This document shows positions 1 to 10,024 of a stretch of DNA of 64,000 nt, in pieces. The notes beneath the pieces were generated by a model. The model made no database searches. It saw only the letters and a program-made list of their open reading frames with translations, and was not told where the DNA came from. Source of the stretch: an uncultured Candidatus Saccharibacteria bacterium (GTDB taxonomy: Bacteria; Patescibacteriota; Saccharimonadia; Saccharimonadales; Saccharimonadaceae); assembly GCA_963456275.1 (NCBI GenBank), contig CAUOLJ010000003.1, positions 201-64,200 on the forward strand, written 5' to 3'. Made by a program: the position numbers and the translations under genes. Position 1 is the first letter of the stretch, and every line of letters starts with the position of its first letter.

Positions 1-390
1 AAAAAATATGACATAGGCCCGCCAGATGCTTTGGAGATTCTTGAACTGATTAATTATGCTCGTAGTAAAGAAAATCTGAAGCCGTTAAAAATGTACGAGC
101 CGCTTAACCGAACAGCGCAGTGGATGGCGAATGACATGAAAGAGAATAATTATTTTAGCCATTATAAACCAGGCACAACTATTCCGCACGGACTGCTTAA
201 AGCGAGGGCTGTCTGCAACGCGCCAGCCGAGAATCTGGTGCAAACTTCGCCACCAGATCTGCACACTAGCCGCGTGGCATTCAACGCCTGGATGCAATCG
301 CCGCCGCACAGGCAATCCATCATGTCGAGCACCTACACGCTAACCGGATTTGGCATTGCCGGCAATAAGATTGTGGAGCATTTTTGTTGA
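1..390 (+). CDS. CAP/SCP-domain protein, C-terminal part (begins before window)
   Basis: Frame open from base 1; motifs LINxxR, AQxxAxDM..YFSH, AENL, WMxSPxHR, GFGI. Confidence 0.85.
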   Translation, partial: KKYDIGPPDALEILELINYARSKENLKPLKMYEPLNRTAQWMANDMKENNYFSHYKPGTTIPHGLLKARAVCNAPAENLVQTSPPDLHTSRVAFNAWMQSPPHRQSIMSSTYTLTGFGIAGNKIVEHFC

Positions 391-556
391 GTGTGTGTTT
401 AAACTGCCCGTCTTATAGCCATTCTCGCCGCCATTGGTATTCTATGAAAACTGCGCGGATAAATCTGATGTAGGGAGGCGATATCCTGCTAATACCTCAT
501 GATTTAAGTATGAACAAGATGGGTGGTTTGGATAAATCGGATGAAGGCTAAATACT

Positions 557-2017
557 TTACAATATAACATTACTCCACTCAAACATACTCCTGCCTAAGT
601 CTTCTCTATTAGTGATTCCAGCGCGAGAAAATACGTGCAGCAAATTTTGATTACTACATGACATAAATAAGTCGTCATAGTTACGAGAAATATTATGCCA
701 TATCCTGTCCTTAGTTTCTAAATAATCACTATTGATAATCTTGCATATCATACATAGAAAATCTTTATCCTTAAGTTTTTCTATAAACTCTGGTATATAT
801 CGTTCCCATGAAGGACCTAGTAGAATTCCTAATAACCACGGAAATTTTCCAAACATTAGATACTGTATGATATTGCCATCAAGGTATGTCTGCAGGAGGC
901 TTGGATTGTCAGCAAAACGCTCTTGCAGGAGTTGAGTTGTCGGGAGTGTAAGGTTCGCATCTTTTAATTTTTTATAGTGATCTAATACATGTTCAGGATA
1001 GTTTATTGTCGTAATATTTTCCAGATCTATATTATTAGCGATCGGGAGGAGACTACTTGGATTAATTAGTCTTATTTTTGCTATTGTTGGCAGTATGGTC
1101 CATGACTTGCTATCAACGATAGAGCCAACGATTAAGGATATTATTTCGTTGATAATCAAAGAATAGTACTCGATTGAAATTTCATGAGATATACTAGTAT
1201 TTTTAGAAATTTCAGCGTAGTGATCTAGAATAATTTGAATTGATTTGTATGCCTGTTCTAGTATATCCGCTCTTTCGTATTCAGCGGCCTTTTCAAGAAT
1301 TTCATGTAGCTCAATAGCTATGTCTTTAGTAGCACAATACGCATTATATACATTTGCTGTGTATTCCTCCGCTGCTACGCCTTCGTTAAATACACCAGGT
1401 GATAAGTCTAAGTATTGCTCATAGGTGTTTGCAAAATAATCTCTTATAGTTTTCTTTGCTGGCTTTCCGTTTTCAATTGCGCGAATAAGACTATCTTTAT
1501 AGGATTGAGTTTTGTTAATTTTTTCTTCGTTTGCCAACGAATCCAGGTGTGCTACGATAGCCTCCTTTAGGCTTCTCTTTAGTAATATAGCTTTATTATC
1601 TTTTTTTATAGAAAACCCTATCGTTCTTTGATGGGCAATATCAAATGGCAGTTCTTCCATTCTACCCAGATCAATATTTGCAACTTGGATAACCTTCTCC
1701 TCTGTGTGCTTACCAATTGCATATCCAAGTTCAAACATCACGTTTTGATTAACGATACCTTTTCCAGACTTGCCTCTGTCAATAATGGATACGTCTGCAA
1801 GAAAAATGCCGCAATTATTAATCTTTTCCTTGATGGTGGCTCCTATGTTAACGGCTCCTACCGCACCTTTCGTATCCTTATCTAATTCGACTCTTGGTGA
1901 CTCTTCTAATGCAGGAGTGTCGGAGATTTCTTTAATAACATCTAGCAGGGTTTTTTCGATATGACGTCGTGTTTTCGGGTGGTTAGACTGCCATGAATAA
2001 AATACTTTTCTTTTCAT
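557..2017 (-). CDS. TIR-like / nucleoside-deoxyribosyltransferase-like nucleotide-binding domain protein, probable defence gene
   Basis: N-terminal KVFYSWQS...IFLADVS...NQNVMFELGYAIG...LPFDI motifs; long divergent C-terminus; AT-rich. Confidence 0.7.
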   Translation of the reverse strand: MKRKVFYSWQSNHPKTRRHIEKTLLDVIKEISDTPALEESPRVELDKDTKGAVGAVNIGATIKEKINNCGIFLADVSIIDRGKSGKGIVNQNVMFELGYAIGKHTEEKVIQVANIDLGRMEELPFDIAHQRTIGFSIKKDNKAILLKRSLKEAIVAHLDSLANEEKINKTQSYKDSLIRAIENGKPAKKTIRDYFANTYEQYLDLSPGVFNEGVAAEEYTANVYNAYCATKDIAIELHEILEKAAEYERADILEQAYKSIQIILDHYAEISKNTSISHEISIEYYSLIINEIISLIVGSIVDSKSWTILPTIAKIRLINPSSLLPIANNIDLENITTINYPEHVLDHYKKLKDANLTLPTTQLLQERFADNPSLLQTYLDGNIIQYLMFGKFPWLLGILLGPSWERYIPEFIEKLKDKDFLCMICKIINSDYLETKDRIWHNISRNYDDLFMSCSNQNLLHVFSRAGITNREDLGRSMFEWSNVIL

Positions 2018-2084
2018 AATATTCCTCTAGTTTAGTATATTACATTTCAGGTTTGAATAAGGGTTGCAAAATTAGTACATTAAT

Positions 2085-2111
2085 AAAACAAAAAGACGCA
2101 CCAATAGCGTC
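2085..2111 (-). terminator. Probable intrinsic terminator downstream of the RT operon
   Basis: Minus strand GACGC-TATTGGT-GCGTC followed by TTTTGTTTT. Confidence 0.5.
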
Positions 2112-2120
2112 CTTATCCTA

Positions 2121-2185
2121 ATTGGTGGTAATTTACGCCAAAGCTCGAACCCATTTCGAGCTTAAAAGCTGAGCCATGTAGGCTC
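2121..2185 (+). repeat. 65-bp inverted repeat, left copy (partner 5273-5337)
   Basis: Reverse complement matches 5273-5337 at 58/65 positions by hand alignment. Confidence 0.9.
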
Positions 2186-2392
2186 AGCCCCAACGCCTGT
2201 GCCAGCAAAGCTGGCATGCGTCCAGTCAGAAAAACCGCTCCTTGAATTATCTTTTTGAAATTTCCCCGCCTTATTTTTCTCTTTAGTTGAAAGGGTCGGA
2301 TTTTTTCTGTCGGTCCGCCCACCGAAATCGGTGGAGGCGTTGTGGCTTCGCTCGGGCGGCAGAACCGCCACATCTTTGCAAGCAAGGCGTTC

Positions 2393-3394
2393 CTAACGCT
2401 CAACATATTCTTTATAGCGCAAAGTCGATTTTCGTTTTTTACGTATCGTGGTATTTCTCCTTCGGGACTCCTTATACCTATGCGTCAAGTTGGCTAACTT
2501 CCATCGAGTTTTCGTACCGAGTGTTAATGAGTTTCTATTCATCTGTAATCCCAGATGCTCAAAACCTCGCTTTCCTTGATAAATTCCATCTATGTCGTAT
2601 TCGTCGCCGGAATGGTATATGATTTTGGTTTTTGCGTCATTGAGCGGCAGCTTCTGATTTTTGTCGCTCTCAAGAATAGTCTTGATTTTTGGATAAAGCT
2701 TCATCATATCCTCTTTGGTGATTCCACTTGCCGTAATAGCAATATCATCAACGTAAATAGCAATACGAGGATCTTTGCCTTGTAGCTCCTTTTTCACAAG
2801 TCGCTCGAGCCTGAGGAATGTATCGAGATTACACCATACCGCCAGGCGAGACGAAGTTGAAAACCCGCGGGCGATTGTCTTATAAGTTCCGGGGTTATCT
2901 TTCGCACCAATTGGCACACAACAAAGGTCGGCCAGCAATCTTGCACCTCTTTGCCCACATTGACCCTTGGCTAAAAAGAAGCTATAGACACGTTCATATT
3001 TAATTTGCTCAAAAAACCGTGAAACATCCAGCTTGAGGATAATTCGCTTCCGCTTTACTCCGAGCAGGTGTGTTACTGCGACTTTATGGTTCCGTCCGCT
3101 CACGCCTCCGAATACGAACGTTGGAATAAGTGAGTCATGGGGAGCTAAAACTTTTACATTAATAAGCTTGAGTAATTTTCCCAGGTCGGTGCGCGATGCG
3201 TCGCGCACCCATTTACCTTTTTCGGGTTGCGATTGTGTGGGATGGTCAGTCCAGTAGTTGTCGTAGTTCATCTTAACGTCGCTTACCAGTCTTGCCATAT
3301 CCTCAACTGAATCTCGCTTATCACTTAAACGTTTCGCAAGCTCTCGCTTGCTCCGAATGGCGATTTTAGGATAGTTATGTTGGTTATTTTTCAT
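2393..3394 (-). CDS. Reverse transcriptase, retron-like (333 aa)
   Basis: LKLDVSRFF (RT3), ARGFSTSS (RT4-like), IYVDDIAIT (catalytic YxDD), HLGL; RT-only size, no maturase or endonuclease domain. Confidence 0.92.
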   Translation of the reverse strand: MKNNQHNYPKIAIRSKRELAKRLSDKRDSVEDMARLVSDVKMNYDNYWTDHPTQSQPEKGKWVRDASRTDLGKLLKLINVKVLAPHDSLIPTFVFGGVSGRNHKVAVTHLLGVKRKRIILKLDVSRFFEQIKYERVYSFFLAKGQCGQRGARLLADLCCVPIGAKDNPGTYKTIARGFSTSSRLAVWCNLDTFLRLERLVKKELQGKDPRIAIYVDDIAITASGITKEDMMKLYPKIKTILESDKNQKLPLNDAKTKIIYHSGDEYDIDGIYQGKRGFEHLGLQMNRNSLTLGTKTRWKLANLTHRYKESRRRNTTIRKKRKSTLRYKEYVER

Positions 3395-3710
3395 TGCGCC
3401 TTAATAACTTTGCTCGTTCTTTGATGAGATGATTTTGTAACTTGGTACCCCAACCTATAAATTGTTTTTCAATAACAGATAGTTTTTTACCGTTTTCGAC
3501 ATTCTCTCCATACAAAAAAGGAGTTATCGAGGCCGGGTGTACTTTTAAGCCATCAGCAAGCTTCAAAATTAGCTTTTTTGACACCTCTTTTTGTCCACTT
3601 TCGACCATAGCAATCAAAACCGGCGACACATCTATGGCCTTAGCAAGCTCGGTCTGCGTTAAACCAGCTTCGTTGCGTATCTTTTTGATTAGTTCTGGGA
3701 ATGAATACAT
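3384..3710 (-). CDS. XRE/Cro-family HTH protein, overlapping the RT start
   Basis: IKKIRNEAGLTQTELAKAIDVSPVLIAMVESG; 11-nt overlap with RT. Confidence 0.92.
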   Translation of the reverse strand: MYSFPELIKKIRNEAGLTQTELAKAIDVSPVLIAMVESGQKEVSKKLILKLADGLKVHPASITPFLYGENVENGKKLSVIEKQFIGWGTKLQNHLIKERAKLLRRNEK

Positions 3711-3729
3711 TGTTTTACCTTCATAACGA

Positions 3730-3897
3730 CTACAAGCCGGAGGTAATTTGACTTAAATCATGTCGCGGATAATTCTGACTATTTGTAAAATAATCTTCAT
3801 TATCCGCAAGACCTTGGTAAAAGTCTTCATTATTACCCTCCGGCTTGCGATACGGATGCCACAGTTTAGTTGGTAAAGAAATAAGTTGCTTTTCCAT
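3730..3897 (-). CDS. Unannotated 55-aa ORF (MEKQLISLPTKLWHPY...ITSGL) enclosing the peptide ORF in another frame
   Basis: AAAGGAAGG Shine-Dalgarno at 3910-3902, ATG 3897, TAG 3732-3730. Confidence 0.5.
   Translation of the reverse strand: MEKQLISLPTKLWHPYRKPEGNNEDFYQGLADNEDYFTNSQNYPRHDLSQITSGL
3753..3830 (-). CDS. Unannotated 25-aa cationic amphipathic peptide MKTFTKVLRIMKIILQIVRIIRDMI, candidate toxin
   Basis: GGAGG SD at 3841-3837, ATG 3830, TAA 3755-3753; SD paired with CCTCC at 3743-3739. Confidence 0.65.
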   Translation of the reverse strand: MKTFTKVLRIMKIILQIVRIIRDMI

Positions 3898-3914
3898 ATG
3901 GCCTTCCTTTCTAA

Positions 3915-4217
3915 CAAGCTAGATTAAAATATTTAGTTAGTAAAAGTTGGACAATCTTACTCTCGGGGCTATCGTTTCGATTGGTATAGACATCCGGTAA
4001 TACCCTAGTCGGCAAGATATAAATCTCGTAGCCCCGATTTGGATAGTCCCTGTGCTGGAAGCATTGCTTCAAGCCACGTAACATGTACAACGCGCGGAAT
4101 ACCGACCCGTGGTACAAGTCCTCACTCTGAATGGAATGGGTCAAATGCGTTTTATAGCATCTCAATCTATCGATTTGACAGCTTTATCGCTAAACTGATT
4201 TTTAACTTACTAGCCTG
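3915..4217 (-). ncRNA. Candidate RT-associated ncRNA (msr/msd-like)
   Basis: Ends pair (CAGGCUAG 4217-4210 with CUAGCUUG 3922-3915, plus UUAAAA/UUUUAA and UUUAG/CUAAA); internal stems 3963-3971/4029-4037, 4058-4070, 4140-4146/4173-4179. Confidence 0.6.
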
Positions 4218-4222
4218 CTACC

Positions 4223-4252
4223 AGTATATACAAAACGTATAAGTCCTGTCAA
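4223..4252 (-). promoter_or_regulatory. Sigma70 promoter of the RT operon
   Basis: TTGACA (4252-4247), 18-nt spacer, TATACT (4228-4223); predicted start about 4217. Confidence 0.7.
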
Positions 4253-4267
4253 GACTTTGGTTCACCC

Positions 4268-5157
4268 AACTAACCTGGAACAGCCATAGCAAACCGTAGG
4301 AATGCTATTGGGCTGGCGAACAGTTCTGGCTGGTTAGCTCTTGCCATCCATTCTCGGCAAAGAGAGTCTAGCTGTCTCGTCAGGATTCTTCCTCCGAACA
4401 GCTTCCGAGCATGCCGCTTCGTCACGCTCCAGATATTCTCTCCTTGGTTGGTACCGGCAAAGCACTCTTTGCTATGATTCCAGCTCTCATGGGCGTAGCC
4501 AAGTAGTTCTAGCTCGTCATACGCCCACCATTTGTCGCTTGCCACTAGGCTGCCTGCTACGATGTAGTCCTGAACAAATTGTTCAAGCGGTTGTCTATCC
4601 CGGCTGTCGGTAATGCGTAGGGCAATGCGCCCAGTCGCAGTGTCTTTAGCGCCAACTACGATGCGCTGAGGCTGTTTGGATCGCCTCTTGCCAAAGTAGC
4701 TTTCATCTACTTGCACCACACCCTCCAATATAGCGGTGAGCTTGCTGCTGTCAGGCAGTTGCTTGCGAAATCGGGCAAACCAGCGCCGAACAGTAGTATA
4801 GCTTACGCCAGCTAATAGATATGCCTGCCGTTTCTGTTGAGCGTTTTGTTTGCCAACAGTAGAGCAGGATGAACAGCTGCCGAGAACTTAGCTTCATGCC
4901 GTATAGCCAGCTAGCCTGGTAGCTGGTTGGACGATGCTTCTTGCGACAGAACTTGCACCATAGATATCTGTTGCAATAGCTCTCCTGAAGACTTGTGCGG
5001 CAGCGAGGACACAATACCTCATCGCCGAAAGCCAATTTGTTAAGGATCTGCCAATATTTCTTGTTACTGGCAAACTTTGGTATGGTAGACATTAGGAACA
5101 CCTCCTTTTACTTAGTTGCTATTCACTCCTAAGTTTACGGGATGTTCTGGTTTAGTT
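4268..5157 (-). mobile_element. IS1595-family insertion sequence
   Basis: Zn-ribbon plus ISXO2-type DDE transposase; imperfect terminal inverted repeats 4268-4285 and 5140-5157 (14/18). Confidence 0.8.
4270..5092 (-). pseudogene. IS1595 transposase, frameshifted
   Basis: CPRC..CKFC in the 5' frame, VQVDESYFG..SDKWWAY..H in the 3' frame; frames joined by removing a TGCC duplication at 4822-4829. Confidence 0.85.
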
Positions 5158-5272
5158 TAATGGACCTGCGAGACTTAGCGTTGCATTTATTCATGATGAT
5201 ATCTACGACGATAAGATATTCCAGTCTTGGCGGTAGACCTTGGTGGTAAAGTAGTTTTAGTTTGAGAGCGCG

Positions 5273-5337
5273 GAGCCTGTACAGCTCAGCTTTTACGCTT
5301 GAAATGGGTTCGAGCTTTGGCGTATATTACCACCAAT
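5273..5337 (-). repeat. 65-bp inverted repeat, right copy (partner 2121-2185)
   Basis: 58/65 identity to the reverse complement of 2121-2185. Confidence 0.9.
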
Positions 5338-5629
5338 AGAACTAAAACGGTCGCCCATTTGGGCGACGAAATATCAGCAATTTTGTATTGGTGCGGAATT
5401 ACAGAACCTACTCAAACTTTTTGAATACATTATGGATTACCCTGGTCCAGCTCCAGCAATAAAAAGACGTACAGCGCAGCATAAACAAACGCTATCAATT
5501 ATTTATTAGTAGCAATCTGTTGTGATATCAGAAGATAGTTTACAGGGGGTTGTTACTCTTTAATACGTAGAAATGTCATTCCGCTATGTAAATGGTAAAT
5601 TTTTGGGTGCAAAGTTGCCAATACTTTTT

Positions 5630-5800
5630 TTAAGCGTGCCAATAATGATTAGGGCTAATTGAGTAGTATAGAATTGTAAAGAAACCAACGCCAACCAGGC
5701 ATAGTAAGATGTGTTTTATAATACTATGTCCCTTTTGCTCTCGTACATAGTTAAAATTTTCTTGTTTTGTGTTTCCTGATGATTGTTGATGGTTGTTCAT
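5630..5800 (-). CDS. Unannotated 56-aa small membrane protein (MNNHQQSSG...HILLCLVGVGFFTILYYSISPNHYWHA)
   Basis: GGAGG SD, ATG 5800, TAA 5632-5630; one hydrophobic segment. Confidence 0.7.
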   Translation of the reverse strand: MNNHQQSSGNTKQENFNYVREQKGHSIIKHILLCLVGVGFFTILYYSISPNHYWHA

Positions 5801-5823
5801 AATACCTCCATTATTTAATTATT

Positions 5824-5941
5824 AAAAAAGGACAGCCACTGCTGGCTGTCTAGACCCACAACGAGAAGTTTTATCCCTATTGCTTTTAGCAAATGGCTGC
5901 CCATTTTCGGGATAAAATGAGCCCTGTTGTGAATCTAGACA
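5824..5941 (-). ncRNA. Structured leader or sRNA with overlapping intrinsic terminator
   Basis: Nested stems 5847-5854/5934-5941, 5857-5862/5926-5931, 5869-5877/5909-5917, 5880-5884/5888-5892; terminator 5831-5850 plus T6; extended -10 TGCTATAAT at 5956-5948. Confidence 0.6.
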
Positions 5942-6361
5942 TTATCTATTATAGCATTTTGATGTAAAATTTGAATTTCTGATATAATAGGTAATGTAAT
6001 TAATAAAATAACCGCATTCTAGTGTGGCTACATAGCGGAGACGGACCGCGTAAAAAACGGGTAGCACATTTACACATTAGAATAAGCATACGAGAACAGC
6101 TCGGTAAAAATGGGGCTTTTAGCGGACTAACTGAAGTAACTGCTTCAAGGAGTCTCGTATGTCCCCTTCATCTAACCGAAAAGTTTTCATCGATGACAGT
6201 ATATTAAAGTTGCTCAATGTATTGTTTAAATATAGCGACAAGCACAATGAAAAAATAAACACCACATCAAATAGACAGCGCTACATAATCAATAGAGGAG
6301 TAAAAATCCTTTTATAGTTCCCTATAGCCTAAATTAGCTCTAACTATAGGTAGGGGCTATA

Positions 6362-8026
6362 ATGGGAATTATGCAGAATAATAATGATTCTATAAGTGTA
6401 AAATTACTATTAGATAAACTTACGGGCGGTGGTCCTGAAAGCAGTGAGGACTCGCTTAAGCCCGTACGCTATGGGTTGTACGCCCGTAAGTCTACTACAA
6501 GCGAAGATAGACAGGCTTCATCAATAGAAGACCAGATAAAGGAGTGCGTAGATAAGGTTATTACACCAAACGGCTTAAATGTCAAAAAGATATACAAGGA
6601 AAGCTTTTCTGCTAAAATTGCAGATATACGTGATGAATTTAATAAACTTATAGATGATATTGAAAACGGAAGGATAGACGGCTTGATAGCTTGGCATCCT
6701 GACCGCCTATCACGAAATATGAAAGAGGCGGGTGTTATTATCGACCTGGTGGATAGGGGCTTAATTAAGGACCTAAGATTTGCAACATTTACATTTGAAA
6801 ATAATCCGGCGGGTAAAATGCTGCTCGGCATTACGTTTGTGATGGCTAAACAATATTCTGAACATCTCTCCGAATCGGTGGACCGTGGCAATAAAAGAGC
6901 CATAGAAGACGCTGAGTTTATCGGTAAGTTCAAGCATGGCTACATACTAGACTCAAATCGTTTTTTCCAACCTGACCCGAAGAATTTTACAAAGGTTAAA
7001 CATATATTTGAATTAGCTCTAGACGGTAAATCCCAGAAAGACATTAGAGAATGGATTAATAGACAAAATTATACTGTTCAAAAGCGTGCAGGAGGTCCTT
7101 ACCAAAATCATGATTGGTCCAAAGATGATATTTCAAAGACTCTTAAAGACCCCTTTTATGCTGGTATTTTAAAATGGGGCAAGCATTACAAAAATTTATT
7201 AGAAGAGTATGATTTTCAGAGTGCAATTACTGTTGATGAATATCTAAAAATAAATAAGATTGATAGCTTAGATTCCTCTAAAGTTTATGCTATCAACAAG
7301 CCAAAAGGTGGTGAAATATTTGCGAATTTATTTCGGGGTGGAGTCGTTTGTGGGGCTTGCAATGAGCCCATGACTTCAATGGTTACAAATAAGCGGAATA
7401 AGGTAACGGGCGAAAAATACGATTATAGATATTACTATAAGTGTGAAAACGGACACTGTAATTTCAACGGAAAATCGATTCGCGCAAAAAGTATTATTGA
7501 TACGGCTGAGGCATTTTTTAATAGTTACTTATTCATTAATAAAAGTAATTATTTGGTAATAAAAGAAAGTGCTGAAAAATCTATAAAATGCAAAGGGGCT
7601 AATCTTGCTAGCGAGATAGCTAGCTTAAAACGAAAAATAGCACTTAAAAAGCAACATTATGAACAGACAAAGGCTCTCATACTAGAGAATCCAGAACTAA
7701 AGGACTATTACAATCTTGGCGAATTTCTTGATGAACAAAAGGAATTAGAACAACGTTATGAACTGGTGGCTAATCAAAAACGCTTACTAAAGGATTCGTT
7801 GATTACATTTGATGAATATCTCAAACTTTTTAAATCCCTCCCTGTTATTTTTGAAAAACTTGATGATATGAATGAGTTGAACCAACTACTAAAAATATTC
7901 TTCTCTAACTTCATAATTGAACCCATTAAAAAAGACACTTTTAAGGGGTCAAAAGTATCCTATAAACTAAATGAACCCTGGAAAGGGTTCATTGAATCAA
8001 ATGATTTCGTTTGTGGTGCGGGTTAG
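6362..8026 (+). CDS. Large serine recombinase (resolvase, recombinase and Zn-ribbon domains)
   Basis: YARKST catalytic Ser, DRLSRN, CGAC...YYKC; stop codon lies inside the tRNA 3' end. Confidence 0.95.
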   Translation: MGIMQNNNDSISVKLLLDKLTGGGPESSEDSLKPVRYGLYARKSTTSEDRQASSIEDQIKECVDKVITPNGLNVKKIYKESFSAKIADIRDEFNKLIDDIENGRIDGLIAWHPDRLSRNMKEAGVIIDLVDRGLIKDLRFATFTFENNPAGKMLLGITFVMAKQYSEHLSESVDRGNKRAIEDAEFIGKFKHGYILDSNRFFQPDPKNFTKVKHIFELALDGKSQKDIREWINRQNYTVQKRAGGPYQNHDWSKDDISKTLKDPFYAGILKWGKHYKNLLEEYDFQSAITVDEYLKINKIDSLDSSKVYAINKPKGGEIFANLFRGGVVCGACNEPMTSMVTNKRNKVTGEKYDYRYYYKCENGHCNFNGKSIRAKSIIDTAEAFFNSYLFINKSNYLVIKESAEKSIKCKGANLASEIASLKRKIALKKQHYEQTKALILENPELKDYYNLGEFLDEQKELEQRYELVANQKRLLKDSLITFDEYLKLFKSLPVIFEKLDDMNELNQLLKIFFSNFIIEPIKKDTFKGSKVSYKLNEPWKGFIESNDFVCGAG

Positions 8027-8089
8027 GAGACTCTAACTCCTGGCCTCTTCCATGGCAAGGAAGCGCTCTAACAACTGAGCTAAACCCGC
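8014..8089 (-). tRNA. tRNA-Gly(GCC)
   Basis: 76-nt cloverleaf GCGGGTTTAGCTCAG...CTTCC TTGCCAT GGAAG...CCCGCACCA. Confidence 0.95.
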
Positions 8090-8222
8090 ATAATGTTCGC
8101 TGCGTATCTCGCTGGCAAATCGTCATAATTTTGCGAACTCGCCTATGATGTGCGATACAACAGCCAATCTTTCGATTACATAGTAAGTATAGCAAACAAA
8201 ACCGCTCATTTCAATAATCTTC

Positions 8223-9014
8223 TCACCAATTTCTCTTCGTATGATCTGGCGTGGCGTCTTTGTAATCTTCTAGGTGCTGGTTTCTTTCCTGGGATTTACG
8301 CTGTTCATTGTAGGCGTCGATGAATCGCTTGTCCAGCTCTTTGAGTTTGCTATCGGTGCTGCCAGTGTCAACTTTTTCTTTATCGTCAGGTTTGGTGACT
8401 GAAATATCTTGGTCGCCGTTTCTGAGCTGTTTTATCTGCGCCAACTTTTGTCGGATTCGCTGCTCAATAACGATTGCCGTTTTGCCGTCGTCATTGTTCG
8501 CGTCGACTGTTTGGCTGGCAAATTGCACGCCGCAACTATCCTCGCCGTCGTGCAGTACGGCGTTTGCTTCGTCGTAGCGGATGATTGCTCGGTCGTAGCG
8601 TTTTTCGCTGGCGAGGGCGTCTGCTTGCGCTTCAATTGATAGCGCCAAGTTGATGCGGACAGGGCATTCGTGAGTTTTCGGCGCTTTTTGTAAGGCTTGG
8701 CGGAATTGTTTTTCTGCCGAGTCGTAGCGGGCTTGCTTATATAGAGCATTCCCGTCGTTAAAAAATACTTTATAAGATTCAAACAAATTCACGGCATAAA
8801 CTGGCGATAAGCGGAAAGAAGCCTGGCTGTTGTCGCCGTCTTTATAGGCGGTATGCGCTGCTAGCGACAGCAGAGGAAAACTCGTCAATTTAATAGCAAT
8901 CAGCAGAATCACCGCGCAAGCAGGGAATGAATAACGGAGCAGTTTCCGGCGTTTTTCTCGGCGGATTTTTTCAAAATCTAGTTTTTTCAGGTCAAATGGA
9001 CGATTCTTGTTCAC
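8223..9014 (-). CDS. TPR-containing membrane protein (Bat-like operon)
   Basis: TM segment, FNDGNALY..A...F..AL TPR pattern. Confidence 0.7.
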   Translation of the reverse strand: MNKNRPFDLKKLDFEKIRREKRRKLLRYSFPACAVILLIAIKLTSFPLLSLAAHTAYKDGDNSQASFRLSPVYAVNLFESYKVFFNDGNALYKQARYDSAEKQFRQALQKAPKTHECPVRINLALSIEAQADALASEKRYDRAIIRYDEANAVLHDGEDSCGVQFASQTVDANNDDGKTAIVIEQRIRQKLAQIKQLRNGDQDISVTKPDDKEKVDTGSTDSKLKELDKRFIDAYNEQRKSQERNQHLEDYKDATPDHTKRNW

Positions 9015-10024
9015 GGCTGTTTCTCCTCTGGCGGTGTTATGTTTTGCAGTTTGCGCAAAGGCAAATAGACGGTTCTGATTTCAAAGGCCAGCAGAATAGC
9101 AGCCGCAAATATTGCTATCCAATATATATCGTTGTAGCCGTCGAACGAGCGGCTGCTATTGACAGCTTTGTCGACGGAACCGTTCTTGACGACAGTTTCA
9201 ATAGAATCTGGAGTTTGCCGGTGTGTGTACGGCAGTCCTGTTTGACTGGCAATGTTTTTAAGGTTTGTCTCGTCGATTTTTGATACGGCATATTTCAAAT
9301 CTGGCCCGCGCAAATAAAAACCGTCAAAGCCGTCGCTGTAACTTGGCGTTTTTATTTTTCCGCCGTCGGTAGTGCCGTAACCCATGATTGCGCCGCCGCC
9401 CAGCAGGGGCTTTAAGCTGGCGAATGACTTTGGCGAGGCGTCGCTGGTTTGTTCGCCGTCGCCCAGGTAAAATAGCAGCGAGGTGCGCTCGGGATTTTTA
9501 TGCTTGGTGCGAGTAATCTCCGAGGCGATGGTGTCAATCGGTGTATCAATTGAGCTGCCCATGGCATAGCTTTCGCTGATGATATTTACCGTGTCAACTG
9601 CCGATTCAAACATCCTGACGTCTGTCGATAACGGCGAATCAACGAAAGCTTTATTGTTGAAAGTTATTAGGCTAAATCGCGCGCCAACCAGCTTTTTGGC
9701 AATTTCTTTGGCGTCGCGGCGCATGCCGTTGATTCGCGGCTGGCCGTTATCATAATCCTCGGCAGCAGAACTCATCGTTGTGTCCATGACAACATAAACA
9801 TCGACTAGCGGCGCGCCCCATTCTTTCACTTCGCCAGGAATAGCTGGGCGAAAACAAGCGGTAATGATAAGCAAGACAATACAGAACCGCCGCAGCCACG
9901 CTCGCCGGTTAGATATTGGTTTGGATAAAATCCTCCAGCCGGTAAAAATTGCAGCAACTACCAGAATTATCAGCAGCAGATACCATGGCAAAATCGGTTG
10001 CATTATCATATGCGAAGCCTCCAA
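9011..10024 (-). CDS. VWA-domain membrane protein
   Basis: DTTMSS MIDAS-like motif, GDGE. Confidence 0.85.
   Translation of the reverse strand: MEASHMIMQPILPWYLLLIILVVAAIFTGWRILSKPISNRRAWLRRFCIVLLIITACFRPAIPGEVKEWGAPLVDVYVVMDTTMSSAAEDYDNGQPRINGMRRDAKEIAKKLVGARFSLITFNNKAFVDSPLSTDVRMFESAVDTVNIISESYAMGSSIDTPIDTIASEITRTKHKNPERTSLLFYLGDGEQTSDASPKSFASLKPLLGGGAIMGYGTTDGGKIKTPSYSDGFDGFYLRGPDLKYAVSKIDETNLKNIASQTGLPYTHRQTPDSIETVVKNGSVDKAVNSSRSFDGYNDIYWIAIFAAAILLAFEIRTVYLPLRKLQNITPPEEKQP

Follow-up and report, generated by a model that had tools for sequence, protein, structure and literature searches.

A covarying pseudoknot joins a putative reverse transcriptase template to a candidate toxin gene in a divergent retron, very probably of type VI lineage, from Patescibacteria

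What RNA does the reverse transcriptase (RT) of this saccharibacterial locus copy, and how might copying it affect the genes transcribed with it? The locus lies in a 64,000-nt stretch of contig CAUOLJ010000003.1 (the window, whose positions are used throughout), from an uncultured Candidatus Saccharibacteria genome that is 0.76 Mb in size and 81% complete. The retron's RNA, promoter and coding frames are all on the minus strand. An earlier note on this DNA had proposed that 3915–4217 encodes an RT template/primer RNA of about 300 nt, an msr-msd equivalent, closed by an a1/a2-like stem that begins at the predicted transcription start.

The minus strand of this interval does fold into a structured RNA, with a minimum free energy of −91.7 kcal/mol (z −4.34) that none of 100 shuffles equalled. 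In the fold, CAGGCUAG/CUAGCUUG form the closing stem, which includes a single G-U pair, and UUAAAA/UUUUAA and UUUAG/CUAAA are present too. Of the internal helices described by the note, GAAGC/GCUUC (4070–4058) and a 9-bp stem enclosing 57 nt are present, and GUCAAAU/AUUUGAC appears only partly in the centroid. The note had also read the G-U pair as consistent with the transcribed strand. The plus strand reaches −83.2 kcal/mol (z −3.42), so energy favours the minus strand, but by energy alone the preference is modest.

A sigma70-type promoter, TTGACA-18-TATACT (4223–4252; −35 at 4252–4247, −10 at 4228–4223; 11 of 12 matches), places the start near 4217. It is the best of three sites in 2000–4400, and because shuffles give 4.3, the site count alone is no evidence; it is the recurrence of this layout in homologues that points to a start near 4217. 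A weak plus-strand promoter-like site at 3948–3975 is within chance. We rejected the 84-aa ORF at 3911–4165 as a conserved protein: it has stops or frameshifts in two loci at 94–95% DNA identity (L023 and L024), a stop-free frame of at least 80 codons spans the region in 3 of 51 loci, and searches of Pfam, PADLOC and NCBIfam gave no match. Rfam found only tRNA over window positions 1–10000.

For comparison we used 97 loci including the window, the metagenome part being the best 80 of 117 matches. Among the 86 loci with at least 400 nt 5' of the RT, 84 have an upstream HTH gene, the misses being L007 (masked) and L020 (a sister lineage). The 84 reduce to 58 non-redundant loci at <85% identity, and the 51 in which a promoter palindrome was found were carried on, leaving out three short contigs and four loci without a match. 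The alignment holds 50 homologues (L015 was left out for its orientation) with a mean identity of 50%. Thirteen relatives lie on genome contigs, mostly labelled Saccharibacteria or other Patescibacteria and one labelled Gammaproteobacteria. Two scans of viral contigs found no relative of the retron, and phage and plasmid records hold distant RTs only (24–29% identity). The sequences P0050, P0051 and P0055 have W at several conserved G positions, as expected for TGA-encoded glycine read as tryptophan; if so, the clade would extend to recoded CPR lineages.

The gene order, ncRNA–small protein (SP)–HTH–RT, suggests a type VI retron. The 333-aa RT (2393–3394; Pfam RVT_1, YVDD motif) has RT_VI as its best PADLOC model (80 bits), and the Cro/C1-type HTH protein (3384–3710; Pfam HTH_3) has HTH_VI; at 108 aa and overlapping the RT gene, the latter falls within the 91–110 aa of adjoining or overlapping type VI HTH proteins. 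RT_VI is also the best model for seven further clade members, which with the window RT score 63–105 bits; six references reach 224–329 and one type IV RT reaches 182. In a quick LG tree (SH-aLRT 95, no bootstrap), the clade groups on a long branch with type VI references rather than with nine other RTs; the tree and the HMM comparison were made from sequences other than Vpa2, Sen3 and Cle1. The catalytic aspartates D123, D216 and D217 are invariant in 37 sequences, and region X has an NHxxAxxH-like stretch. In region Y, HLG replaces VTG with the G kept, and the references have ITG/VTG.

A small protein gene lies between ncRNA and HTH in all 58 loci. The type VI SP clusters described by Mestre 2020 (PMC7736814) are three-helix bundles of 75–79 aa, and those of this lineage are single helices of 20–31 aa. 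This mismatch makes membership of a described SP cluster less likely, not that the system works like type VI. With RT_VI and HTH_VI as best models and covariation in the RNA (see below), the note's proposal of an msr-msd equivalent 5' of the RT is supported, and from its architecture the RNA is very probably the 5' domain of a hybrid RNA in a divergent, long-branch patescibacterial retron of the type VI lineage. In principle, type VI retrons have been seen in CPR bacteria before, since Retron-Cle1 of Candidatus Levybacteria is already listed as type VI (PMC10849725).

Two outlying loci show other arrangements. L113 (G304:C19:18950-22810) encodes a 406-aa ORF with an HTH-like N-terminus fused to an RT (RT_VI match, E 3.5e-67), possibly an HTH-RT fusion form of type VI. 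L020 (G757:C1) has an RT at 1480-2400 (-), with RT_VI as best model (189 bits), that is sister to this clade and lacks an HTH gene; directly 5' of it is a 70-aa ORF with a hydrophobic tail.

Which helices, then, does the family keep? The note had named covariation among homologues as the check on its RNA, and the 50 homologues provide it. The msd-like long hairpin (3949–4049, 57-nt loop) has an outer stem (4049–4042:3949–3956; GGAC/GUCC, 80% paired) and an inner one (4037–4029:3963–3971). The latter is the 9-bp stem, which is paired in 411 of 447 cells (92%) with two-sided changes at all nine pairs. GUCAAAU/AUUUGAC does not hold up as a family helix (73/313 cells, 23%); an msr hairpin, AGAUG...CAUYU (4143–4162), is used instead and is paired in 238 of 249 cells (96%). 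GAAGC/GCUUC sits in the length-variable middle, outside the pairing counts.

The a1/a2-like closing stem, P1 (4210–4217 with 3915–3922), exists in the window but is less secure in the family. It is paired in 198 of 320 cells (62%), in a gappy part of the alignment; in a per-locus search it scores at least 16 in 33 of 51 loci vs 486 of 2550 cross pairs, being clear in the part of the tree that includes the window, and weak in a single clade. As the least conserved of the supported helices, P1 has only a putative priming-stem role. An equally possible priming helix is P2 (4182–4177:3968–3973, its 5' strand lying in the msr), which is paired in 227 of 279 cells (81%, vs 21–37% when slid) with 24 parsimony pair switches, the own partner ranking in the top decile in 33/50 and 26/50 loci by two tests. 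Its extension, P2b, is 50% paired and poorly aligned. P2 and the inner msd stem use the same 3' strand, so the msd has two mutually exclusive conformations. Priming at P1 would give a product of about 130 nt, and priming at P2 would reach the pseudoknot strand described below within about 25 nt. G4210 is conserved in at least 90% of homologues, yet it is paired inside P1.

Covariation is strongest outside the proposed interval. The top two covarying pairs of the alignment join the loop of the 9-bp stem (3996–3989) to 3860–3853, and since this helix crosses the inner stem and P1, it is a pseudoknot. It is paired in 394 of 400 cells (98%), with two-sided changes at 8/8 pairs. Parsimony on the HTH+RT protein tree calls for no fewer than 42 changes from one Watson-Crick pair type to another, so the pairing is not a product of shared ancestry, and the excess of G-U (17) over A-C (3) means that selection acts in RNA. 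For the whole named structure, 0/500 shuffles matched what was observed, and pairing fell to 35–46% in slid controls.

Conservation of the RNA therefore extends past the proposed limit of 3915. It continues to about 3730, making the selected unit (about 4217–3730) larger than first thought and partly coding: a predicted hybrid RNA of msr-msd-like domain, leader and SP coding sequence, with a z of −6.62 for the fold of 3705–4225. In metatranscriptomes, two samples of one study each have a sole contig, spanning 3903/3904–4200/4205 of a relative about 96% identical. This is a hint, and a weak one because assembled contigs cannot show ends, strand or level, that the ~300-nt 5' domain accumulates as a stable species. 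Regions without cover carry no information on expression, and run X7 is probably DNA. In run X1 (library type unrecorded), a contig spans leader and SP (3733–3991) and ends at the last base of the clamp 3' arm.

What does the pseudoknot lie beside? Its 3' strand is 5 nt upstream of a helix, hereafter the clamp, that holds the Shine-Dalgarno (SD) sequence of the SP gene. The clamp 5' arm (3832–3847, containing GGAGG at 3841–3837) pairs with 3733–3747, thereby joining the SP SD to sequence 3' of the SP stop; it covaries, with a 7-pair core that is 97.7% paired and a duplex energy of −24.6 with its own partner vs −15.2 across loci. The SP has a strong SD in 43 of 50 loci, and the transcript is predicted to be a hybrid RNA with a sequestered SP ribosome binding site, like that of Vpa2.

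The SP itself (3753–3830) is a 25-aa cationic amphipathic helix with a hydrophobic moment of 0.71 (vs 0.40 shuffled), and we consider it a candidate toxin. An ORF of 20–31 aa ends closely 5' of the HTH gene in 58/58 non-redundant loci, starting with ATG in 56; the picking rule always returns a candidate, yet all fit one pattern, with the consensus LRxLRIILxIIRILxDLL. Pfam and PADLOC gave nothing near cut-off for the SP, and no Pfam family passed the cut-off in 54 members. An SP profile beat all shuffles for one of eight reference type VI SPs, which are 47–67 aa long. We infer toxicity by membrane damage, and the SP resembles the type I toxins TisB and DinQ in length and in its amphipathic cationic helix. 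Their ESM Atlas clusters are the nearest (0.83 and 0.79), but scores <0.9 are leads only, and there is no Pfam match.

A second reading frame runs across all of these elements. The leader ORF (3730–3897) has 55 codons, lies in the −1 frame relative to the SP and stops at the clamp 3' end, the clamp 3' arm being immediately 5' of its stop codon. Leaders have 44–59 codons, overlap the SP in the −1 frame and are intact in 55 of 58 loci. An upstream ATG, 52–91 nt away, is found in this frame in 57/58 loci vs 1 and 5 in the other frames, and the 18 upstream codons contain 0 stops vs 64 and 90. Within the leader/SP overlap, synonymous choices that would create a leader stop number 2 vs 41.3 expected (HTH control, 413 vs 510), a strong argument from codon choice for selection on an open leader frame. 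Leader residues are poorly conserved, so translation rather than its product likely matters. Among eight reference type VI loci, seven have stops in the −1 frame, and the GC-rich L102 is open. A programmed frameshift fusing leader and SP is disfavoured: the SP comes with an ATG and an SD of its own, and the leader frame stays open along the whole SP.

The exceptions are L035 and L064, where the leader is cut off inside the SP, and L089, which lacks the ATG; the L035 SP starts with GTG. Such loci are either natural experiments on what the leader does or copies in decay. A search of the leader against ESM Atlas gave no usable match, and the Atlas lists the 55-aa leader as a protein. This is a trap for gene calling: the leader is catalogued, whereas it is the 25-aa ORF within it that encodes the conserved peptide.

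The leader leads towards the HTH gene. Its stop is 11 nt 3' of the SP stop in 44/58 loci and 4–25 nt 5' of the HTH start in 54/58. An HTH SD is found in 2/50 loci and absent from the other 48, vs 8/8 reference type VI loci with one; for scale, 231/601 long ORFs of the window's genome and 13/62 flanking ORFs have an SD, as do 14/50 leaders.

The HTH protein probably also acts at the promoter. A palindrome, TATAC-N5-GTATA (4227–4241), lies between the −35 and −10 elements and recurs with at most one mismatch in 50 of the 54 loci that have enough upstream DNA for the count; it is exact in 48 of 51 found, against a background of 8 in 169,737 nt. The simplest reading is that it is the HTH operator. 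A different palindrome, TTCGC-N5-GCGAA, lies near the promoter (by eye just 5' of the −35 element) in six of eight reference type VI loci from plasmids or phages (exact in L101, L103–L105 and L110, one mismatch in L102) and was not found in L107 or L108; it is a candidate operator of canonical type VI HTH proteins. Together, the palindromes of this clade and of the six reference loci point to a DNA-binding role for the HTH that is absent from the main texts of both type VI preprints (10.1101/2025.10.22.683967, on Vpa2, and 10.64898/2026.04.27.721009, on Sen3).

Comparison thus shows one palindrome-bearing promoter, an msd-loop pseudoknot just 5' of a clamp that locks the SP SD, and a leader that crosses pseudoknot, clamp and SP to stop 4–25 nt before an SD-less HTH gene in most loci. 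We propose that, at rest, ribosomes translating the leader would pass through the clamp and bring translation to HTH and RT. SP initiation would be held low by the pseudoknot next to the SD, and the HTH protein would bind leaked SP and repress the promoter. During phage infection, the RT would copy the msd, and RNase H (an RNase H family gene is present in the window's genome) would remove the pseudoknot 5' strand, or the RT-DNA would invade in trans. SP initiation behind leader ribosomes would then be released, and SP would outnumber HTH and damage the membrane, causing abortive infection. The switch between the inner stem and P2 may gate priming. We put the chance slightly short of even that the entire chain holds together with its direction, in which toxin translation is released because reverse transcription takes the pseudoknot away.

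Several observations support this model: the gene order, the best-matching HMMs, the grouping with type VI in the tree, and the co-occurrence of the RT and HTH families, both found in the same three of 401 sampled genomes of the phylum. The pairing of pseudoknot and clamp, the selection on the leader frame, the SD pattern and the SP-HTH structure model described below count for it as well. The literature on Vpa2 also favours toxin release by reverse transcription, since the preprint reports that its SP translation needs RT activity (10.1101/2025.10.22.683967). The route must differ, however. Because the RT-DNA would have the same sequence as the pseudoknot 3' strand, the opening of the riboregulator proposed for Vpa2 is not available to it; the sequence leaves only consumption or invasion of the msd strand as its way to act. 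The model is weakened by the low RT_VI scores, by SP toxicity being a prediction, and by equilibrium folding, in which the SP start is no more open with the strand freed (0.24 vs 0.25). The pseudoknot is at the edge of the 30S footprint, and elongating ribosomes melt an 8-bp helix.

Folding of the leader start raises the opposite possibility, that the pseudoknot activates. In the window, the leader start has an unpaired probability of 0.30 with the 3' strand free vs 0.66 with it held, and across homologues, holding the strand makes the leader start more open in 23/50 and less open in 3/50. Once freed, the strand is able to pair with the leader SD in the subgroup to which the window belongs, and this pairing ranks in the top decile in 11/50 loci. 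As a family-wide switch, strand pairing with the leader start was rejected (own −6.0 vs cross −5.3), leaving it to the subgroup, where leader-start opening with the strand held would make the pseudoknot activating and so counts against our model. The pseudoknot could then be needed for leader-coupled SP translation, as in IncI repY/repZ; reverse transcription would defuse each transcript, and a phage block of the RT would unleash the toxin, which is canonical antitoxin logic. IncI/IncB have the same parts, a leader peptide together with a pseudoknot on which initiation depends (PMC8053102), and the ends of two RNA contigs fall at the leader SD, as though the sequence beyond it had been cut away. 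However, the strand lies outside the clamp and so cannot hold it open directly, and pairing of the strand with the clamp 5' arm was rejected, the best alternative register being only 62% paired and neighbouring registers 54–60%. RT-dead Vpa2 mutants, moreover, are reported as not toxic (10.1101/2025.10.22.683967). We consider this reversed arrangement rather improbable.

Structure modelling bears on another alternative. For the L030 homologues, the SP-HTH model scores 0.72 vs 0.00 for the best of three controls, runs agree in 100% of contacts, and partner pLDDT is at least 84; this mark is reached by 116/157 solved and 2/215 mismatched pairs, counts that hold roughly here because own alignments were used. 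The modelled interface, HTH residues 56–98 in L030, overlaps the helix modelled for Sen3 (residues 76–91), and the models support binding of SP by HTH. The locus could therefore be a constitutively armed toxin-antitoxin system like Sen3, in which leader and clamp set the SP:HTH ratio, resting SP is held by HTH on the RT complex, and infection frees it; a variant has the leader shut off once the pseudoknot is lost, after which HTH would be depleted and the stored SP set free. Besides the SP-HTH model, this would fit the SD-less HTH gene closely 3' of the leader stop, a leader open to the clamp end (which mok does not need), the strand-leader SD pairing in the window's subgroup, and the Sen3 precedent, a type VI retron that the preprint describes as working without translational control (10.64898/2026.04.27.721009), which counts against our model. 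Alone, however, it gives no reason why, among partners of the region 5' of the SP, the msd loop, which the RT is expected to consume, should covary with it most strongly, nor does it sit easily with an SP SD clamped by about −25 kcal/mol. We regard it as unlikely, though worth weighing.

The genomic setting raises a third alternative, that the locus has no anti-phage role and instead serves a mobile element as an addiction module, or belongs to a distinct RT system with only a resemblance to type VI. Inverted repeats of 68 bp (88%) at 2121–2188 and 5270–5337 enclose the retron and an IS1595-family transposase, which is split into two ORFs (5101–4751 and 4728–4270). A large serine recombinase gene (6362–8026, plus strand) ends in a tRNA-Gly gene (8014–8089, minus strand), and GC is 33–43% across most of 1–8000 vs 47–51% beyond, so the region is an integrated island running off the contig end. 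This setting, the patchy distribution (3/401 genomes), the long RT branch and the replacement of VTG by HLG all fit such a view. Against it, the gene order, promoter palindrome and modelled SP-HTH contact are common to type VI, and homologues occupy varied gene neighbourhoods. Mobility is also common among defence systems. We therefore give this view only a small probability.

Other observations concern the flanks. In L021, L023 and L024 the retron match ends at 4258 with one repeat copy kept, and L022 shares 396–5058. A 486-aa protein (557–2017, minus strand) has a weak CAP12/Pycsar TIR match slightly below the Pfam cut-off and is a possible second defence gene; it occurs in L022 and L032 and is not a conserved part of the retron.

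How does release of SP by reverse transcription, our preferred reading, compare with known systems? As the preprint describes it, Vpa2 (10.1101/2025.10.22.683967) shares the ncRNA-SP-HTH-RT order, a hybrid RNA of ~470–490 nt that holds msr-msd and SP coding sequence, a sequestered SP ribosome binding site, and a link between the msd loop and the region 5' of the SP. In Vpa2 a 7-nt direct repeat, which the msDNA reads, makes that link; in the present lineage it is made by an inverted RNA-RNA helix that covaries, and the SP is smaller. Direct repeats of the Vpa2 type between msd loop and riboregulator loop were not enriched in our loci (9/50 own vs 180/489 cross). Sen3 (type VI cl2075; 10.64898/2026.04.27.721009) likewise is described with an SP in a structured transcript, an inverted repeat 3' of the SP stop, and an amphipathic SP helix that models place against the C-terminal helix of the HTH protein. 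Its downstream repeat pairs with SL3 without significant covariation, whereas ours pairs with the SP SD and covaries, and its SP is about 79 aa vs 20–31 aa.

Likenesses also exist outside retrons. The hok/mok type I system (PMC9841398) is described as having a small membrane-type toxin, an overlapping leader whose translation rather than product matters, and a structure-gated mRNA. IncI1/IncB repY-repZ (PMC8053102) combines a leader peptide with a long-range pseudoknot 5' of a sequestered ribosome binding site, but there a replication protein is controlled via antisense RNA, whereas here the loop is the putative RT template and the clamp does not include the strand. In their main texts, the Vpa2 and Sen3 preprints mention no overlapping leader, pseudoknot, operator/palindrome or Patescibacteria under the terms searched, and a literature search over main texts and passages found no paper describing such retron control or a patescibacterial example.

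A template loop that pairs beside a locked, tiny toxin gene under a second reading frame suggests a new way in which reverse transcription may control a toxin. More tentatively, the RT template would be a cis switch of the toxin's mRNA: RT and RNase H would destroy the pseudoknot strand, and the leader would direct translation of a 25-aa membrane toxin and an SD-less antitoxin. The RT would then be an RNA-processing trigger and not a maker of functional DNA, and type VI HTH proteins would be operator-binding autoregulators. The locus adds a candidate defence system to Patescibacteria, for which the literature searched gave none. How msDNA controls the toxin is an open question for type VI, and the main texts of both 2025–26 preprints leave the riboregulator untested. 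This lineage supplies specified base pairs in which dozens of compensatory changes occur naturally, a leader start and stop that can be mutated, and a candidate operator, making the link between msDNA and toxin directly testable, and it predicts a third regulatory logic beside those of Vpa2 and Sen3.
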